Assembly: GCA_934162445.1 (NCBI GenBank)
Contig: CAKPIT010000002.1
Location: forward strand, 11,101-75,100
Direction of reading: 5' to 3'
DNA length: 64,000 nucleotides
Origin: an uncultured Bacilli bacterium
GTDB taxonomy: Bacteria > Bacillota_I > Bacilli_A > RF39 > UBA660
Shown here: piece after piece, positions 25,894-57,256 of the stretch
Layout: the number at the start of each line of letters is the position of its first letter
Numbering within the stretch: position 1 is the first letter of the stretch
The notes under the pieces: generated by a model
The model's input: the letters and a program-made list of their open reading frames with translations, nothing else
Databases searched by the model: none
What the model was told of the DNA's origin: nothing
Translations under genes and position numbers: made by a program

Positions 25894-26778
25894 TTATTTA
25901 TCTAGATGCATTATTTCTAAAATTCTTGTTAAATCACTAGCACTGGTAAAGTTTATTTCAAGATGATTTTTAGTAATTTTTACTTTTGTTCCTAGTTTTT
26001 CACATAAATCACTTTCTAAATATGAAAATTCATTTGATTTATGAGTTTTAGGTTTGATTTCTTTTTTACGATGGAAATCTTCTTTAGATGTAGTTATTTC
26101 TTCTAACTTACGAACACTTAAATTTTCATTAATTATTTTTTCGGCTAAGTCTAGAGCCTGATCTTTGTTTTCTAATTTACTTAGGACTCTAGCATGACCC
26201 ATTGATAGTTCGCCTTTAATAATTTCATCTTTAATTTCAGCCGGTAAATTTAAAAGGCCAAGCATATTGGTAATATGGCTACGAGATTTTCCTACTTTAG
26301 TTGCTAATTCTTCTTGAGTTAGATTTAGTTTAGTTTTTAACATGTTATAGGCTTCAGCTTCTTCTAAAGGACTTAAATTTTCCCGTTGTAAATTTTCAAG
26401 AAGAGCTATTTCCATCATTTCTTCATCAGTTAAATCTTTAATAATAGCAGGAATTTTTGTTAAACCAGCAATTTTACTAGCTTTAACACGACGTTCTCCA
26501 GCTATTATTTCATAACCTTTTATGCTTTTTTTGGCAATAATTGGTTGAAATACACCATGTTCTTTAATGGATGCTGCTAATTCATTCAAACTATCTTCAT
26601 CAAATGTTTTTCGTGGTTGATATGGGTTACTTCTTAACTCATCTAAAGAAATTTCAGTAATTTGATTTTTAGGGGTAGTATCAATTATTTTTTGTTCTAC
26701 TTCACTCATACTAATTTGTTCGTTATTAAATAATTCTTCTAAGCCTCTTCCTAGGGCTCTTCTTTTAGTGTTCTCCAT
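25894..26778 (-). CDS. spo0J: Chromosome partitioning protein ParB/Spo0J (parS-binding type)
   Basis: RGLEELF, ISLDELRSNPYQPR and GERR boxes. HTH reads GKSRSHITNMLGLLNL...LSMGHARVL (Spo0J-type). ATG at 26778 follows an AAGGAAGTG RBS. Confidence 0.93.
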   Translation of the reverse strand: MENTKRRALGRGLEELFNNEQISMSEVEQKIIDTTPKNQITEISLDELRSNPYQPRKTFDEDSLNELAASIKEHGVFQPIIAKKSIKGYEIIAGERRVKASKIAGLTKIPAIIKDLTDEEMMEIALLENLQRENLSPLEEAEAYNMLKTKLNLTQEELATKVGKSRSHITNMLGLLNLPAEIKDEIIKGELSMGHARVLSKLENKDQALDLAEKIINENLSVRKLEEITTSKEDFHRKKEIKPKTHKSNEFSYLESDLCEKLGTKVKITKNHLEINFTSASDLTRILEIMHLDK

Positions 26779-27556
26779 TTCGATCAATCACTTCCTTTGC
26801 TAAATTTAAATAGGCTTCAGATCCTTTACTTTTAGGATCATAAACTATTATTGGCTCGCCATGGGATGGCGCTTCAGTTAGTCTTATTAAACGAGGAATA
26901 ATGGTATTGTAAACTTTTTCTTTGAAAAACTTACGGATATCATCTACTACTTCAAAACCTAGATTAGTTCTTGAATCTAACATTGTTAAAAGAACGCCTT
27001 CAATATCTAAATTGGGATTTAATTGTTTTTGGGCTAGTCGAACAGTATTTAGTAATTGCATAATTCCTTCTAGAGCAAAAAATTCACATTGAACAGGGAT
27101 AATAACTGAATCACTTGCTGTTAGGGCATTAGTCGTTATTAATCCTAGTGAGGGAGGACAATCAATTATTATAAAATCAAAATTATCATCTTGTAATTCT
27201 TGAAGATGGGTCTTTAATTGAGCTCCTTTGGCAAACCCCGGTTCACTTTGACTTTTTTCTAATAATTCAATGTCTAGACCTGCTAAATTAATGGTGGCAG
27301 GAAGAACATATAGTTTCTTATATTTTGTTTTTAACATTGCATCTTTGGTGTTACATTTGTTGGTTAAAACATCATAAATACTTAAATCAATATCTCCTTT
27401 ATTAATACCAACACCGGTTGTAGTATTACCTTGCGGATCCAAGTCTATTAATAACACTTTTTTACCTAAATATGCTAATGAGGCTGATAAATTTATACTA
27501 GTGGTTGTCTTACCTACTCCACCTTTTTGATTTACTAATGAAATTACTTTTGTCAT
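26765..27556 (-). CDS. soj: ParA/Soj partitioning ATPase
   Basis: NQKGGVGKTTT deviant Walker A. Confidence 0.96.
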   Translation of the reverse strand: MTKVISLVNQKGGVGKTTTSINLSASLAYLGKKVLLIDLDPQGNTTTGVGINKGDIDLSIYDVLTNKCNTKDAMLKTKYKKLYVLPATINLAGLDIELLEKSQSEPGFAKGAQLKTHLQELQDDNFDFIIIDCPPSLGLITTNALTASDSVIIPVQCEFFALEGIMQLLNTVRLAQKQLNPNLDIEGVLLTMLDSRTNLGFEVVDDIRKFFKEKVYNTIIPRLIRLTEAPSHGEPIIVYDPKSKGSEAYLNLAKEVIDRNGEH

Positions 27557-27642: not shown

Positions 27643-29007
27643 CTACTCTTTTGGGTCCTTAGCAATTTTGATAACTATTTGATAATTATTGACTAAATCC
27701 ATTTCATCTGTATCTATTTTGATACCACTTGCCTCTAATTTTTTAACAGTATCTCTTAAAATACTTATAGATTCATTAATAGTCATTTTAGGGGTTGCTT
27801 GGTCTTGATTATTTTGTTCAGTTACTTCTTGTCTAAAGATAGGATTACGAGCAAAAGGATTATTATATGGATCAACAGGAGCAATTGGTGGAGTTTTATC
27901 TTCTTGTTGATTCATTCCCGCTAATAATGTATCCATTGACGTACTAGTAGCATCATTGATATTAGGAGTTTCTGTTGCTACACTAAAAGGATCTGATGAT
28001 TTGATAGTAGTATCTGAAGCTGGAGATACTTTGGTTGCCTCTTGAGTTGGTTTCTCAGTTGGTGTTAAAGTTGTATCAAAGAATTTAAAGGTTGGTTCTT
28101 GAGAGAGACTACTCGTTTCGTGATTATCAACTGATAGGAAGTTAGCCATATTTGGTTTTTCTGTTTGAACATTTATATCTTGAGCATTATCTTTTAATTC
28201 ATTGATATCTATTGGTTTTGTGGCGGTACTTTCTAAATTATCAGTAGTACTTGGAGTATCGTAGTCAATAAATTTAGGAGGAGTTGAATAATCTATACCA
28301 ACATTTTGATTAAAGTCATTTGTTGGTTGTGTTAATGGTGTAGTACTTACTTTTGGGGTATTTAATAAGTTTTCAACTTCATTAACACTTATTTTTTCCT
28401 CTTTTGGTTTGATTTTATCTTCTAGTTCTCTTACAGTCATTTTATTTGCTATTACTTCTTTCAATAATTTTTTTTGCTCTTCAGGCTCTACACTTAAAAG
28501 AGTTCTAGCATGACGTTCTGAAATTTCATCTTTTAATAGAGCATCTTGAACTTCATCAGTTAAAGATAAAAGACGTAGTTTATTGGCTACAGCACTTTGA
28601 CTTTTGCCCATAGTTTTTGCTAGTTCTTCTTGCGTCATTTGATCTAATTCAAGAATTTTTTGATAAGTTTTAGCTTCTTCAATTGGATTTAGATTTTTCC
28701 GTTGAAGATTTTCTAAAAGAGCAACTTTACTACTTTCTTTATCATCTAAATTGCGAACAATAGCAGGAATTTTGGTTAAACCAGCTAAAGCTGATGCTTT
28801 ATACCGTCTTTCGCCAGCTATTATTTCATATTTATTGCCAATATTACGGACAATTATGGGTTGGATTACACCATGTTCTTTGATAGAAACTGCTAATTCT
28901 TTTAAAGCTTTTTCATCAAATACTTGTCGTGGTTGAAATCTATTTGGAATTATATCATCTAAGTGTAAATATACTACTTCATTATCTTTTTGATCTATCA
29001 TTTTCAT
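27643..29007 (-). CDS. noc: Noc-type ParB paralogue (nucleoid occlusion protein homologue) with atypical architecture
   Basis: Sits between rsmG and soj, as noc does in Bacillus. IPNRFQPR and GERR boxes. HTH reads GKSQSAVANKLRLLSL...ISERHARTL (Noc-type). About 200 aa of T/P/S/N-rich linker precede a small C-terminal domain. Confidence 0.8.
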   Translation of the reverse strand: MKMIDQKDNEVVYLHLDDIIPNRFQPRQVFDEKALKELAVSIKEHGVIQPIIVRNIGNKYEIIAGERRYKASALAGLTKIPAIVRNLDDKESSKVALLENLQRKNLNPIEEAKTYQKILELDQMTQEELAKTMGKSQSAVANKLRLLSLTDEVQDALLKDEISERHARTLLSVEPEEQKKLLKEVIANKMTVRELEDKIKPKEEKISVNEVENLLNTPKVSTTPLTQPTNDFNQNVGIDYSTPPKFIDYDTPSTTDNLESTATKPIDINELKDNAQDINVQTEKPNMANFLSVDNHETSSLSQEPTFKFFDTTLTPTEKPTQEATKVSPASDTTIKSSDPFSVATETPNINDATSTSMDTLLAGMNQQEDKTPPIAPVDPYNNPFARNPIFRQEVTEQNNQDQATPKMTINESISILRDTVKKLEASGIKIDTDEMDLVNNYQIVIKIAKDPKE

Positions 29008-29071
29008 CCCTCTTTTATCTTTTTTATTTTTCTACTAGTAACAGTATAGCATTTTTTTTAAAAGGATGCCA

Positions 29072-35353: not shown

Positions 35354-35400
35354 AATTTAGAGTATTATAATGGTAATTTAGAAATTCAGGTGGGAGAGTG

Positions 35401-38057: not shown

Positions 38058-38195
38058 GACAAATATCAAGAAAAAAGGTAAAAAAATTACTTTTTTTCTT
38101 TTTTTGTGATAAAAAACAACAATTTTCGACAATATAATATAGTAGACTGGTAGCCAAGCAATTTATTATTGCTTAAGGAAGGGGAGTTTCGAAAA

Positions 38196-38657
38196 ATGAA
38201 TGAATATGAGATTAATGATGAGACACTTGCGATTATGCCTGATAATGTATGGAATTCGATTGTAGTAGAGGACCAAGCTTCTTATGAAATTAGCAAAAAA
38301 CCATTAGATATTGTAGATTATAGTTGTAAATACTTTGGTAGTTCATATGATGGCAGAAAGTCAGGAGCTAAAACCATTCTAAATAGTGGTTATAAGTTAC
38401 CTATTTTGGTAGAGGGAACTAGAAATATTGTGTTTTTTCCTACAATTTCGCCGCTTGATGCTGATTGTTGTTGGATATCTTTAAAAAATATAAAAAGTTA
38501 TTCAAAAATTAATGATTATCAGACTTTGGTAGAATTTAAAAACAACAGAACTTTGGTAGTTAATATATCACTAAATTCCTTTAATAATCAGGTTATGAGA
38601 GCAAGTAGACTTGAATCAACAATTCGAAATAGACAAACAAAAAAAGAAACGATATAA
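38196..38657 (+). CDS. comK: ComK-family competence transcription factor
   Basis: YEINDETLAIMP..., PLDIVDYSCKYFGSSYDGRKSGA, IVFFPTISP and NSFNNQVMRASRL align with B. subtilis ComK as I recall it. GGGGAG RBS before the ATG at 38196. Confidence 0.8.
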   Translation: MNEYEINDETLAIMPDNVWNSIVVEDQASYEISKKPLDIVDYSCKYFGSSYDGRKSGAKTILNSGYKLPILVEGTRNIVFFPTISPLDADCCWISLKNIKSYSKINDYQTLVEFKNNRTLVVNISLNSFNNQVMRASRLESTIRNRQTKKETI

Positions 38658-44293: not shown

Positions 44294-44309
44294 TATTTCC
44301 CGGGAAATA
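44294..44309. promoter_or_regulatory. NBS-1 (Noc-binding-site palindrome)
   Basis: TATTTCCCGGGAAATA; palindromy extends to 28 bp (taaaattatttcccgggaaataatttta). Confidence 0.8.
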
Positions 44310-44379
44310 ATTTTAATTCATAATTTATATATAAAATTTAATAGTTGTTAAATTTCTAATAGTTTATATGTTTAAATAA

Positions 44380-44395
44380 TGTTTCACGTGAAACA
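44380..44395. promoter_or_regulatory. parS-1
   Basis: TGTTTCACGTGAAACA, a perfect 16-bp palindrome. Confidence 0.85.
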
Positions 44396-44525
44396 ATGAT
44401 ATATAATAAATTATAATTACTCTTTCTAAAAAAGCGATTGCCGTTTAATTTAGAAAAATTTGAGATGAAAATTATTATGACTTTATGTACAGAAACACAA
44501 TTTATTCTTAAAAAATCAAAAAAAT

Positions 44526-44541
44526 TATTTCCCGGGAAATA
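44526..44541. promoter_or_regulatory. NBS-2
   Basis: TATTTCCCGGGAAATA. Confidence 0.8.
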
Positions 44542-44583
44542 ATCTTGAATTATAAGTTGTTAATATTTTCCATTTTTGAATAA

Positions 44584-44599
44584 TGTTTCACGTGAAACA
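44584..44599. promoter_or_regulatory. parS-2
   Basis: TGTTTCACGTGAAACA; palindromy extends to 22 bp. Confidence 0.85.
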
Positions 44600-44771
44600 T
44601 TAATAATATGTAATGAAACATCACTTATTTATGGTTAGTAAATATGTATATCTACTTATATGTTTTCATAAAGTTTTTTTTTAGATTGTAAAATTTTGTA
44701 ATAAAATGTATGTAAAAAATATAATGATTTAAAAAAATGGTATCGCTTTATTGATAAAATAAGCGAAAAAT

Positions 44772-44787
44772 TATTTCCCGGGAAATA
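44772..44787. promoter_or_regulatory. NBS-3
   Basis: TATTTCCCGGGAAATA; palindromy extends to 28 bp. Confidence 0.8.
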
Positions 44788-44849
44788 ATTTTTTAATATA
44801 TATATGACTTATAACTATAAATCTGTTGATATATTCTATTTTTTAATAA

Positions 44850-44865
44850 TGTTTCACGTGAAACA
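44850..44865. promoter_or_regulatory. parS-3
   Basis: TGTTTCACGTGAAACA; palindromy extends to 30 bp (ttaataatgtttcacgtgaaacattattaa). Confidence 0.85.
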
Positions 44866-44969
44866 TTATTAACGATTAATGCGACGTATATTATGATATA
44901 TAGATAATTAGTGGTTAAAATTATGATTAAATTGTGTGAATTTTGATTCTTTATTATATTAGTTAAAAT

Positions 44970-44985
44970 TATTTCCCGGGAAATA
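44970..44985. promoter_or_regulatory. NBS-4
   Basis: TATTTCCCGGGAAATA; palindromy extends to 28 bp. Confidence 0.8.
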
Positions 44986-45042
44986 ATTTTAAATTAATAA
45001 ATGATTTCTTTAATTGTTTCTTATATAGGTATTGTGAGCAAG

Positions 45043-45058
45043 TATTCCCTGTGAAACA
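45043..45058. promoter_or_regulatory. Hybrid/degenerate site: NBS-like left half + perfect parS right half
   Basis: TATTCCCT|GTGAAACA, in the slot where a parS is expected after NBS-4. Confidence 0.5.
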
Positions 45059-45139
45059 TATTATACTGGTTATTAAATATCTTTAAAATTAGCAAGAATA
45101 CTTTGTGTTTTATAGTTTGTTTAAAAATATATACTTTAA

Positions 45140-45155
45140 TGTTTCACGTGAAACA
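45140..45155. promoter_or_regulatory. parS-4
   Basis: TGTTTCACGTGAAACA; palindromy extends to 26 bp. Confidence 0.85.
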
Positions 45156-45165
45156 TTAAAAAAAT

Positions 45166-45181
45166 TATTTCCCGGGAAATA
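45166..45181. promoter_or_regulatory. NBS-5
   Basis: TATTTCCCGGGAAATA, 10 bp after parS-4 and 4 bp before the -35 of the SRP RNA promoter. Confidence 0.8.
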
Positions 45182-45213: not shown

Positions 45214-45219
45214 TTATTT

Positions 45220-45298
45220 GTGCAATAGATTTGTTTGGAATCAGGTCAGGATGGAAACATAGCAGCCTTAACAAATTTAATCTATGTGCACTTTTTTT
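45220..45298 (+). ncRNA. ffs: Small (4.5S-type) signal recognition particle RNA
   Basis: GTGCAATAGATTTGTT pairs with AACAAATTTAATCTATGTGCAC. The apex is TCAGGTCAGG-AUG-GAAA-CAU-AGCAGCC, i.e. the helix-8 AGG/AGCA loops and a GNRA tetraloop. A U-run follows. Confidence 0.85.
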
Positions 45299-45839: not shown

Positions 45840-47510
45840 ATGTATCAAGCTTTATATCGTAAGTATAGACCACTTAATTTTGATGCGGTTGTAGGACAAT
45901 CGGTGATTATTAATGCTTTAAAAAATGCTATTTTATATAATTGTATTAGTCATGCTTATTTATTTTCAGGACCACGTGGTACAGGAAAAACAACGGTAGC
46001 AAAGATATTTGCAAGATCAATTAATTGTTTAGAACCGGTTGATGGTTTAGCTTGTGGAAAATGTAATAATTGTTTATATTCTTTTTCAACTGAGTGTATG
46101 GATATTATTGAAATTGATGCTGCTTCTAATAATGGTGTTGACGAAATAAGAGAATTGCGTAGTAAGGTTGGTATTTTGCCTAGTGAATTAAAGTATAAGG
46201 TATATATCATAGATGAAGTTCATATGCTTTCTATTGGAGCTTTTAATGCTTTGCTTAAAACTATTGAAGAACCTCCGGAGCATGTTATTTTTATTCTTGC
46301 TACAACTGATCCTGAAAAGATTCCAACTACAATTATTTCAAGATGTCAGTGGTATAATTTTAAGAAAATTGATAATGTTAGCATTGTTTCTAGATTACAA
46401 GAAATAGTAGATAGTGAAAAAATTAATGTAGAGTCTGGAGTCCTTGAAAAAATAGCATCTAGTGCAGATGGCGGTTTAAGGGATGCAATAGGACTTTTGG
46501 ATAAGCTTTATGCTTATTCTCATGATGAGATATTACTTAATGACTTTTACGAGGTTAATGGGCAAATAAATGATGAAGAATTAAGTGCTTTAAAGGCGAT
46601 TATTTCTGATAATAATGTTAAATTGTTGATGGAAAAAATAGAATCTTATTATCAAAATGGTAAAAATTTAATTCAAGTAATGCGGCAGTTAATGATAAGT
46701 ATAAAGAATGATTTGTTTTCTTATTATATTAGTGATGATAATATTCAATTTGATCCTTTAGATATGATTGATTTATTAAATATTTTGAACAATAGTTTGA
46801 TGGAATTAAAAAAATCTGATGATGTTAGACTTTCTGTGGAAATCTTGTTTTTACATTATTTTGGTTTGAAACATGATAATATTACTAAAGAAAAAAATGA
46901 TGAGAGTGTTTTTTCGAAACCAAAAGTTGTGGAAAAGCCTGTTTCTTTTAAACCAATTATAAAAAATGATGAAGTTATTGATAATAGTGGCGAAGCTAAG
47001 AGATTTGAGGAAAATTTTGATTTTAATAATTTTATTAATGTAATGTTAGTTAGATCAAAAAATATAATGTTGAAGGCATCAAAAGATGAATTAAATAAGG
47101 CTTTGAATAATAATAACATTTTTAAAGGTTCAACTTTTGATAAGACTACAGGATATTTAGCTTGTGAAATACTTGATGGTCATATTAGAGCGGCTAGTGT
47201 TGATGGAATAATAATAAGTTTTGATTATGAATCAATGGTAGAAAAAATGGCTAGTCATTTTGATATTTTGAATAATTATTATCAAAAAATGATAGGAAGT
47301 TCACAGAAAATTGCTATTATTACAAATGAGCGGTGGAGTGAACTTAAGGGAGAATATATTGAATTGAAAAGAGAGGGTAAATCTTTTGAATATCAAGATG
47401 AGCCAGTCTTGAATAAAACTGTTAATAATGATAAAATTGAGGAAACAATATCATCTAATTATATTGATGAAGTTAAAGAGATGTTTGGTGATATTGTGGA
47501 AATAAAATAA
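45840..47510 (+). CDS. dnaX: DNA polymerase III subunit tau/gamma
   Basis: GPRGTGKTT, zinc module CGKCNNC, SRCQ. Confidence 0.96.
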   Translation: MYQALYRKYRPLNFDAVVGQSVIINALKNAILYNCISHAYLFSGPRGTGKTTVAKIFARSINCLEPVDGLACGKCNNCLYSFSTECMDIIEIDAASNNGVDEIRELRSKVGILPSELKYKVYIIDEVHMLSIGAFNALLKTIEEPPEHVIFILATTDPEKIPTTIISRCQWYNFKKIDNVSIVSRLQEIVDSEKINVESGVLEKIASSADGGLRDAIGLLDKLYAYSHDEILLNDFYEVNGQINDEELSALKAIISDNNVKLLMEKIESYYQNGKNLIQVMRQLMISIKNDLFSYYISDDNIQFDPLDMIDLLNILNNSLMELKKSDDVRLSVEILFLHYFGLKHDNITKEKNDESVFSKPKVVEKPVSFKPIIKNDEVIDNSGEAKRFEENFDFNNFINVMLVRSKNIMLKASKDELNKALNNNNIFKGSTFDKTTGYLACEILDGHIRAASVDGIIISFDYESMVEKMASHFDILNNYYQKMIGSSQKIAIITNERWSELKGEYIELKREGKSFEYQDEPVLNKTVNNDKIEETISSNYIDEVKEMFGDIVEIK

Positions 47511-47824: not shown

Positions 47825-48420
47825 TGTATCCAGAAAGTTTAAAAAATTTAGTAGATAGCTTTCAAAGTTTTCCCGGGATAGGGGAAAAAACAGCTGAACG
47901 AATGGCTCTTGCTGTTTTGAATTTTGATGAAGAAAGGTTTTCTTTATTACAAGAAAATTTAAAGGATGTTAAGAAAAATATTCATAAATGTCCATTGTGT
48001 AATTGTCTTACGGATAAAGATATTTGTCTTGTTTGTGATTCTGATGTGCGAAATAGGGATACTATTTGTGTTGTTGAAGATCCGAAAATTGTTTTTCTTT
48101 TTGAAAAACTAGGAACATATAAAGGATTGTATCATGTTATTAATGGTTTGATTTCTCCACTTGATGATATTAATCCTGAAAATATTGGATTGGAAAGTTT
48201 AATAAATAGAATTAGTAATAATAATATTAAAGAGGTAATACTTGCTTTTAAGCCGAGTGTTGAAGGGGAAATAACAGCTCTTTATATAAAAAAAATACTA
48301 GAAGGTATTAATGTTGTAGTTACTAGGTTGGCAAGTGGAGTACCAATTGGGGCTGATATGGAATATATTGATGCTTTAACTCTTGAAAGAGCATTAGAAG
48401 ATAGAAAAGAATTGTCATAA
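47824..48420 (+). CDS. recR: Recombination protein RecR
   Basis: FPGIGEKTAERMA HhH, C4 zinc finger, Toprim. Confidence 0.96.
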   Translation: MYPESLKNLVDSFQSFPGIGEKTAERMALAVLNFDEERFSLLQENLKDVKKNIHKCPLCNCLTDKDICLVCDSDVRNRDTICVVEDPKIVFLFEKLGTYKGLYHVINGLISPLDDINPENIGLESLINRISNNNIKEVILAFKPSVEGEITALYIKKILEGINVVVTRLASGVPIGADMEYIDALTLERALEDRKELS

Positions 48421-57003: not shown

Positions 57004-57039
57004 AAAAAGTTATGGTAGACTAATGATGTTTAAATGTTG

Positions 57040-57256
57040 TGATGGAGAGATTTGTAATAATTCTTTTCTAAAGAGACTTCTTGGTGGTGAAAATAGAAGG
57101 TTAAGGTATTATAAATTATGGCTCTTGAACTTTCATATTGATATGTAAGTATGAACGTTACTAAGCGTTAATTAGATTGAGTGTGCAAGATTTATTGTAA
57201 ATAAAGGTGGTACCGCGGTTTGTAATCGTCCTTTAGTTATAATGAATCTTTTTTTG
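57040..57256 (+). promoter_or_regulatory. T-box riboswitch leader (Met specifier) of metG
   Basis: GTGATGGAGAGA (GA/AG-bay) and GGTGGTGAAAA. Candidate AUG specifier at 57118-57120. T-box AAAGGTGGTACCGCG at 57203-57217. Terminator stem 57189-57207 pairs with 57230-57248 and is followed by a T-run. Confidence 0.85.

Follow-up and report, generated by a model that had tools for sequence, protein, structure and literature searches.

What can a Noc protein do without the helix that takes it to the membrane? This question is raised by an open reading frame (ORF) on the minus strand of a 64,000-nucleotide stretch of DNA (the window) from an uncultured Bacilli bacterium (assembly GCA_934162445.1, contig CAKPIT010000002.1). 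In canonical Noc, helix α1 (aa 1-10/14) is an N-terminal amphipathic membrane-targeting helix that is highly conserved among homologues. It is kept autoinhibited by helix α2, and in the apo state the N-terminal motif docks on the N-terminal domain (NTD). Every Noc homologue examined by Adams et al. had the helix, and their NocNΔ10 was non-functional. The product of the ORF at positions 27643-29007 is a Noc orthologue that has neither helix and carries a long acidic linker with conserved short motifs. The only perfect Noc-binding sites (NBS) of the window are interleaved with parS sites near the replication origin. We think it probable that the protein is a Noc-derived CTP clamp acting at this origin-proximal array, with its output delivered by the linker motifs and not by occlusion of the whole nucleoid.

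The gene lies in the order mnmE-mnmG-rsmG-noc-soj-spo0J, which is the classical, ancestral origin cluster of the Bacillota. The gene, its domains and the two partition genes next to it are the following.

27643-29007, minus strand: noc orthologue, 454 aa when read from the first ATG (ATG1, at 29007), with the stop codon at 27643-27645.
28702-28977, minus strand: ParB/Noc N-terminal CTPase domain, aa 11-102 (Pfam PF02195, 121 bits, E = 1.7e-35).
28927-28938, minus strand: FQPR box within the CTPase domain, invariant across the family.
28804-28815, minus strand: GERR box of the CTPase domain, invariant across the family.
28699-28713, minus strand: ENLQR box, invariant across the family.
28405-28698, minus strand: helix-turn-helix (HTH) DNA-binding domain (DBD; HTH_ParB), aa 104-201 (Pfam PF17762, 116 bits, E = 9.3e-34).
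27646-27792, minus strand: Noc-type C-terminal (dimerisation) domain (CTD), aa 406-454, consisting of a helix (410-426) and two beta-strands, conserved in the clade.
26765-27556, minus strand: Soj/ParA ATPase gene between noc and spo0J, identified by the Pfam annotation of the same gene in a relative's locus (L121).
25894-26787, minus strand: canonical Spo0J/ParB paralogue, 297 aa, with the ParA-binding motif LGRGL at aa 12.

The protein scored 286.3 bits against the Noc model TIGR04285 (model positions 1-199), while the neighbouring ParB scored 238; against TIGR00180 the Noc-like protein reached 191 bits (cut-off 58.45). Its last 51 aa matched positions 219-255, the C-terminal end of TIGR04285 (E = 1.4e-3, 18 bits). 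The closest solved relatives by sequence were Geobacillus thermoleovorans Noc (212 bits) and Bacillus subtilis Noc (184 bits), against 165 bits for B. subtilis Spo0J, and the Noc structure 7nfu was the best match in a fold search, at 53-54% identity. The neighbouring ParB preferred Spo0J, with 216 bits versus 143-159 for Noc structures. These results indicated that the ORF is the noc orthologue and the neighbour at 25894-26787 the true parB. The Noc homology asserted in the preliminary description was thus borne out by gene order, by the TIGR04285 score and by Noc structures being the best relatives. A first AlphaFold run with 15 sequences was too shallow (mean predicted local distance difference test score, pLDDT, of 55) and was redone with an 86-sequence alignment. 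In that model the NTD and DBD were mostly at pLDDT 86-95 and the CTD formed one helix and two strands at about 92.

The residues that determine DNA specificity were then compared. Jalal et al. 2020 (PMC7383237) reported that Noc positions 173/179/184/201 are QKKR, that Q173 and R201 read NBS-specific bases, and that for this they need only one lysine, at 179 or 184. The corresponding residues here are Q137, K143, S148 and R165, three of the four being canonical, and the parS-type R173/G201 are absent from the Noc-like protein, which has Q and R there instead. Across the clade Q-K-x-R, GERR and EN[LIV]QR are retained, and position 184 is always occupied by S, N, T or A. In the neighbouring ParB the four positions read R, M, N and G, of which R and G are parS-type and 179/184 are variable. 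The CTP boxes FQPR, GERR and ENLQR are complete in the Noc-like protein, and the ParA-binding motif [LFI]G[KR]G[LFI] found no match in it.

The translation begins MKMIDQKDNEVVYLHLDDIIPNRFQPR, and only about 10 residues precede the conserved domain (Pfam ParB_N from aa 11), close to the 13 or so counted in the preliminary description. A second ATG (ATG2, nt 29001; MIDQ...) gives a 452-aa product and is the start called in independent assemblies. The Shine-Dalgarno sequence AAAGAGGG directly abuts ATG1. For this reason ATG2 is the likelier start, and the noc product is probably 452 aa long, with an N-terminus that is shorter still. An in-frame TAG is found nine codons 5′ of ATG1, as had been pointed out before, and 11 codons 5′ of ATG2. 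The region upstream is short.

29008-29071, minus strand: rsmG-noc spacer, 64 bp, with stops in all three frames, TGcTATACT and the Shine-Dalgarno sequence AAAGAGGG.

Judged by its length and stops, this spacer is too small to hold a longer noc N-terminus. It also contains an extended -10-like box, TGcTATACT, read from the sequence only; together with a Shine-Dalgarno sequence placed for ATG2, it suggests that noc is probably transcribed from a promoter of its own and yields 452 aa. The same short N-terminus was found in 15 near-identical cluster members from independent assemblies and in 119 family members. A concealed longer N-terminus or a misassembly was rejected on the grounds of the upstream stops in all frames, the independent assemblies and the hundreds of homologues with a short start. 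With this, the earlier worry that an assembly error at the 5′ end might hide a longer N-terminus was dismissed.

Residue 6 of the protein aligned with residue 25 of B. subtilis Noc, whose N-terminus was checked against PDB 7ol9 (MKHSFSRFFGLGEKEQEPEIAEHDTNKEEILEIPVN...), and about 20 N-terminal residues are therefore absent. Since the alignment starts at B. subtilis residue 25, the membrane-targeting helix α1 and helix α2 are both missing, and in the alignment to Noc structures no residues upstream of the NTD are able to form the autoinhibition helix α2. The N-terminal 11-mers have net charges of -1 and -2 and low hydrophobicity. Prediction of amphipathic helices along the whole protein, proposed earlier as a check, was carried out as a HeliQuest-type scan and found no cationic amphipathic helix outside the folded domains. 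High-moment, positively charged 11-mers were confined to the folded NTD, DBD and CTD, and the idea of such a helix elsewhere in the protein was rejected on this basis. The only +2 windows of the linker (aa 382-383) were outside the top eight moments, and its high-moment windows were neutral or acidic. As α1 and α2 are absent, the published tethering mechanism cannot operate as described, which supports the earlier suspicion that canonical membrane tethering may not apply.

The region between the DBD and the CTD is the other unusual part of the protein. It comprises these elements.

27793-28404, minus strand: expanded DBD-CTD linker, aa 202-405, about 204 aa, rich in T/P/N/D/S/E, acidic, non-repetitive and predicted to be disordered.
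28261-28299, minus strand: linker motif 1, GIDYSTPPKFIDY, aa 237-249; 15 diverse members have identical residues at aa 238-248.
28171-28212, minus strand: linker motif 2, IDINELKDNAQDIN, aa 266-279, with a short predicted helix (aa 268-274) between two DIN triplets.
28075-28089, minus strand: linker motif 3, FKFFD, aa 307-311; FKFF does not vary within the family.
27916-27939, minus strand: linker motif 4, SMDTLLAG, aa 357-364, with a short predicted helix (aa 359-363); akin to DLDSLL of the wider clade.
27835-27864, minus strand: linker motif 5, NNPFARNPIF, aa 382-391; NNPFAxNPIF in the close family.

The preliminary description had placed about 200 low-complexity residues between the HTH and the C-terminal domain at nt ~27795-28410, and their length and position agreed with those measured here. 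Low complexity held in part, as the stretch is compositionally biased and predicted to be disordered but is not repetitive and carries invariant short motifs. The word "insert" had to be given up: since the CTD corresponds to the last part of the Noc model, the extra residues are an expansion of the normal DBD-CTD linker. The 205 residues from aa 201 to 405 include T 30, P 21, N 21, D 17, S 16 and E 15 and have a net charge of -18. An inserted domain or repeat was rejected, since no Pfam match was found in the linker, no DNA-level tandem repeats were found in its coding sequence, and the CTD aligns to the end of the Noc model. In the 86-sequence AlphaFold model the pLDDT of the linker was 39-66 and that of the motif blocks 46-66, and no linker motif was docked onto the folded domains with either 15 or 86 sequences.

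Among the 119 family members, column identity averaged 0.94 over the NTD and DBD, 0.81 over the CTD and 0.64 over the linker. The NTD and DBD (28405-28977) are unusually constrained, although these members are only 56-70% identical overall to the query. Four islands of the linker are conserved at 90% or more in the same set, namely IDYSTPPKFIDY (aa 238-249), A.DIN (aa 275-279), FKFF (aa 307-310) and NNPFA.NPIF (aa 382-391). In 15 members I390 of motif 5 is nearly invariant and the remaining residues of the motif are invariant. Motif 1 holds a [KR]-F-Φ-D-Φ core (KFID, aa 245-248), which appears in relatives as LPKFINYGEID. Motif 3 belongs to a clade-wide type of short linear motif, N-K-F-F-N-F-L-E-D-E-E, that resembles the canonical Noc N-terminal SRFFGLGEKE.

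The motif types were counted in 144 linkers of the clade and compared with shuffled linkers. The LPKFINYGEID type (KFΦ[DNE]Φ) was present in 23 linkers versus 0.3 expected, the DLDSLL type in 31 versus 1.5, and [KR]FF in 36 versus 2.9. The context consensus of [KR]FF is P-x-[NG]-[KR]-F-F-N-[FP]-L-E-D-E-E, with a variant Y-K-F-[IV]-P-x-F-E-E-E. In the protein of the window the core occurs twice, as PPKFIDYD and TFKFFDTT. Since PPKFIDY and TFKFFD resemble the lost membrane motif, membrane binding may have been relocated and not lost. A variant of the form Y-[KR]-F-[IV]-P-x-F-E-E, with an [IV]-P-x-F core, was observed in the linkers of P0143, P0145, P0146, P0153, P0158, P0165, P0184 and others. 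This core may resemble the conserved C-terminal peptide of FtsZ, a protein that is not encoded in the window.

The architecture is not peculiar to the window. Homologues were collected by an exhaustive search of 1.8 billion representatives, from which the best 150 clusters (50% identity) were taken. Their proteins measure 218-798 aa, nearly all of them 335-798, and the few shorter ones are partly fragmentary. The short N-terminus without a helix was found in 148 of these best 150 clusters, and the linkers of the clade, 90-547 aa long with a median of 216, are net acidic in 100% of cases and contain neither W nor C. The survey of orthologues called for by the preliminary description was thereby made, and it found the long linker and the missing helix throughout the lineage. 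The close family consists of more than 100 clusters at 56-99% identity, with proteins of 450-506 aa that all start M(D/Q)N(K/N)ENEVVYL.... Members that carry a name are called only "ParB/RepB/Spo0J family partition protein" and come from metagenome-assembled genomes (MAGs) of uncultured "Bacilli bacterium". When homologues were searched for again, starting from a representative of 39% identity, only MAG proteins of the same kind and no cultured carriers were obtained. Candidatus Onthousia excrementipullorum has a 472-aa family member and a mixed NBS/parS array. Genome size in the lineage is 1.44-1.53 Mb (three near-complete contigs or chromosomes), with low GC. These results indicated that the short N-terminus and the long linker are lineage-wide features of a large group of uncultured, small-genome gut Bacilli.

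The following NBS and parS sites were found in the window.

44295-45180, no strand: presumed loading array of five perfect NBS interleaved with four perfect parS, lying between the gyrA end (44266) and the signal recognition particle (SRP) RNA gene.
Starts at 44295, 44527, 44773, 44971 and 45167: NBS sites with 14-bp cores ATTTCCCGGGAAAT, each also a perfect 16-mer TATTTCCCGGGAAATA.
44380, 44584, 44850 and 45140: parS sites TGTTTCACGTGAAACA.

Five perfect NBS in the 64-kb window compare with 0.36 expected, and no other sites were found in it at up to two mismatches (NBS) or three (parS). The gene strands diverge at about 35.2 kb, minus to the left and plus to the right, dnaA starts at 35398, and about 8 kb separate dnaA/oriC from the array on its right. 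The origin-proximal array mentioned in the preliminary description therefore exists, and it holds the only NBS sites of the window. The chromosome of B. subtilis has about 70 NBS, roughly one per 60 kb, scattered except near the terminus. Five NBS mixed with parS in 0.9 kb are therefore a clear departure from the B. subtilis spacing.

Mixed arrays were sought in one genome per species as an NBS followed by a parS 40-70 bp later. At least 119 stretches were obtained, all of 23-34% GC, so that such arrays exist in at least 119 species genomes. Homologues of origin-side genes were present at the array locus in 117 of the 119 listed stretches (gyrA in 94, tadA in 96, dnaX in 91). Where gyrA plus tadA or dnaX could be placed in a listed locus, the sites were mostly between them, with GyrA 52-89% identical to that of the window. 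Among the listed loci 190 of 225 NBS fell in the gyrA-dnaX gap, and most of the others were nearby. In a relative with a 1.44-Mb contig, no site was found in the roughly 21 kb that surround noc.

Some details of the sites are recorded here. A hybrid site within the array, TATTCCCTGTGAAACA (45043-45058), has an NBS-like left half and a perfect parS half-site on the right. A small SRP RNA gene (45216-45297) directly follows the last NBS of the array. In many relatives, a lone perfect NBS was seen inside dnaX, about 1.03-1.19 kb from its start, at loci L014, L025, L038, L079, L086, L089, L093, L096, L105 and L118; dnaX of the window (45840-47510) has no NBS, and the nearest NBS-like sequence, with three mismatches, is at 47868 in recR. 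The pairs L051/L055 and L010/L033 are array loci of the same MAGs located at contig ends. It is therefore probable that the repeated arrays break up short-read assemblies, and the site counts per array are lower bounds.

Taken with the anatomy of the protein, these observations lead to the reading that we consider probable. A dimer would nucleate on the NBS array, presumably through the conserved specificity residues, and CTP would close the clamp, which could then slide onto neighbouring DNA. An origin-proximal nucleoprotein complex would be built side by side with ParB, and the linker motifs would deliver the output: through them the origin region would be tethered to the membrane or to a protein. 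The role would not be chromosome-wide occlusion mediated by an N-terminal helix. A more specific version, which we hold tentatively and at somewhat less than even chances, is that Noc has been repurposed as a second centromere-bound clamp that co-assembles with ParB on a composite NBS/parS array by oriC. Its effector would have moved from the N-terminus into an acidic linker with docking motifs, one type of which would derive from, or mimic, the old membrane motif.

Several facts weigh against the proposal. The protein is under the curated cut-off of TIGR04285 (286 versus 315 bits), and K184 is replaced, by S148 in this protein. The motifs vary between subfamilies, and simple regular expressions catch their core in only about one representative cluster out of two. 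Additional lone NBS occur in some relatives, for example inside dnaX. The restriction of sites to the origin rests on 64 kb here, about 21 kb in one relative and 8-kb pieces of relatives, and all family members come from uncultured organisms.

The most serious competitor is ordinary nucleoid occlusion with a relocated anchor, in which the [KR]-F-Φ…acidic motifs of the linker would bind the membrane once many clamps are loaded and NBS would be dispersed too. We regard it as unlikely, though it deserves serious attention, and it is not the best explanation. Candidate motifs exist, PPKFIDY and TFKFFD here and NKFFNFLEDEE in relatives, and the canonical SRFFGLGEKE may be compared with KFFNFLEDE and KFINYGEID. 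The canonical helix is likewise followed by an acidic stretch. When a matrix built from 94 instances of the linker motif was run over the first ~70 residues of Noc, its best window was residues 5-16, the membrane-targeting region, in both B. subtilis and G. thermoleovorans (background frequencies 1e-4 and 4e-4, respectively). The signal, however, came mostly from a three-residue anchor; the tail alone gave 0.07 and 0.014 of the anchored background, which is weak, and the comparison was post hoc. The helical hydrophobic moment of the clade consensus PNKFFNFLEDE is 0.60, versus 0.50 for the B. subtilis helix, but the copies in the window have low moments (0.23 and 0.38) with prolines nearby, and AlphaFold gives no helix at these motifs. 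Their net charge is 0 to -3 versus +2 for the canonical helix, within a linker of net -18. In the work of Adams et al., a heterologous amphipathic helix was able to stand in for the N-terminus of Noc. The lone NBS outside arrays in some relatives would suit dispersed loading, while 63 kb of the window contain no NBS beyond the array.

A clamp with no effector at all seems improbable, clearly more so than a relocated anchor. Such a protein would be a roadblock or insulator by parS that shapes ParB spreading or SMC loading, with the linker as a passive spacer or entropic bristle. As such, the linker would enlarge the clamp lumen or prevent non-specific DNA binding, and the conserved islands would be intramolecular contacts and not partner sites, for instance for autoinhibition of the NTD, on which the canonical N-terminal motif docks in the apo state. 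The strict interleaving of NBS and parS suggests an interplay of two clamps on the same DNA, the 94% column identity of the NTD and DBD is compatible with a role of this kind, and a linker of very variable length (90-547 aa) that is always acidic speaks for a physical more than for a sequence-specific role. The motifs argue otherwise. They are distinct and invariant at 56-99% identity while their surroundings vary freely, which is the signature of binding motifs, and the AlphaFold models dock none of them on the folded domains, with motif blocks at pLDDT 46-66. That the whole arrangement is an artefact, a miscalled start, a frameshifted or decaying gene or a misassembly that masks a normal ~280-aa Noc, has practically no chance of being true. 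The unusual length and the generic NCBI naming of the relatives could raise this suspicion, but stops are present upstream in all frames, the coding DNA has no repeats, independent assemblies give the identical architecture, and hundreds of homologues at 40-99% identity share the short N-terminus, the long linker and the conserved CTD.

The protein was also compared with known systems. With Noc of B. subtilis, G. thermoleovorans and Staphylococcus aureus (TIGR04285; 7nfu, 7ng0, 7ol9, 6y93) it shares the slot between rsmG and soj-spo0J, the CTPase fold of the NTD with FQPR, GERR and ENLQR, the HTH with Q173, K179 and R201, the 16-bp NBS palindrome in the genome, a related small CTD and the lack of a ParA-binding motif. 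It differs in having no α1/α2, like a natural version of the crystallised NΔ26 construct, in the substitution of K184 by S, N, T or A, and in a score below the family cut-off. The linker measures a few tens of residues in Noc and about 200 here (90-547 in the clade), with short motifs, and NBS are scattered singly in the case of Noc, whereas in the regions scanned here they form a cluster beside the origin in which parS sites are interleaved. ParB/Spo0J (TIGR00180; 6sdk, 4umk, 1vz0) has the same fold and presumably the same CTP-clamp cycle, and the clustering of loading sites near the origin is a ParB habit, not a Noc habit. Unlike ParB, however, the protein has Noc-type specificity residues and no LG[KR]GL, and a canonical ParB is encoded two genes downstream.

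Other likenesses are functional. KorB of plasmid RK2 (8qa8, 8qa9) is a ParB-family CTP clamp without ParA-stimulating function whose output goes through a partner protein, but it reached only 52 bits, is plasmid-borne, acts as a transcriptional silencer and recognizes other DNA sites. S. aureus RicO (bioRxiv 10.64898/2026.03.06.710092), a functional analogy only, is a site-specific DNA binder with origin-near sites and is a proposed peripheral origin anchor. Its fold is unrelated, and it has a C-terminal amphipathic helix, none being detectable in the Noc-like protein. A second functional analogue is RacA of B. subtilis. In the literature that was searched, no account was found of a Noc that lacks the helix or has a long linker, nor of arrays that combine NBS with parS.

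Two further features of the window lie apart from these subjects. A T-box leader is found at 57030-57236. The ORF at 38169-38657 separates dnaN from recF, and the Pfam annotation of its counterparts in L121 and L120 places it in the ComK family; to find a competence regulator gene in this interval is unusual.

The current definition of Noc rests on an N-terminal membrane helix gated by CTP, and a lineage without the helix challenges it. This very large and diverse lineage, with at least 150 clusters (50% identity), keeps the constrained, NBS-reading clamp, yet it has dropped the helix, expanded the linker and gathered the sites by parS. For annotation, the consequence concerns proteins that now carry only the name "ParB/RepB/Spo0J family partition protein". 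The findings make it possible to test what other outputs the CTP switch of Noc and ParB can have, whether membrane targeting can reside inside a disordered linker, and how two sliding clamps behave on one DNA. If Noc has indeed been repurposed in these bacteria, they would have a centromere with two clamps, for which there is no described precedent, and the lineage would be a natural experiment in the rewiring of a CTP switch to a new output.

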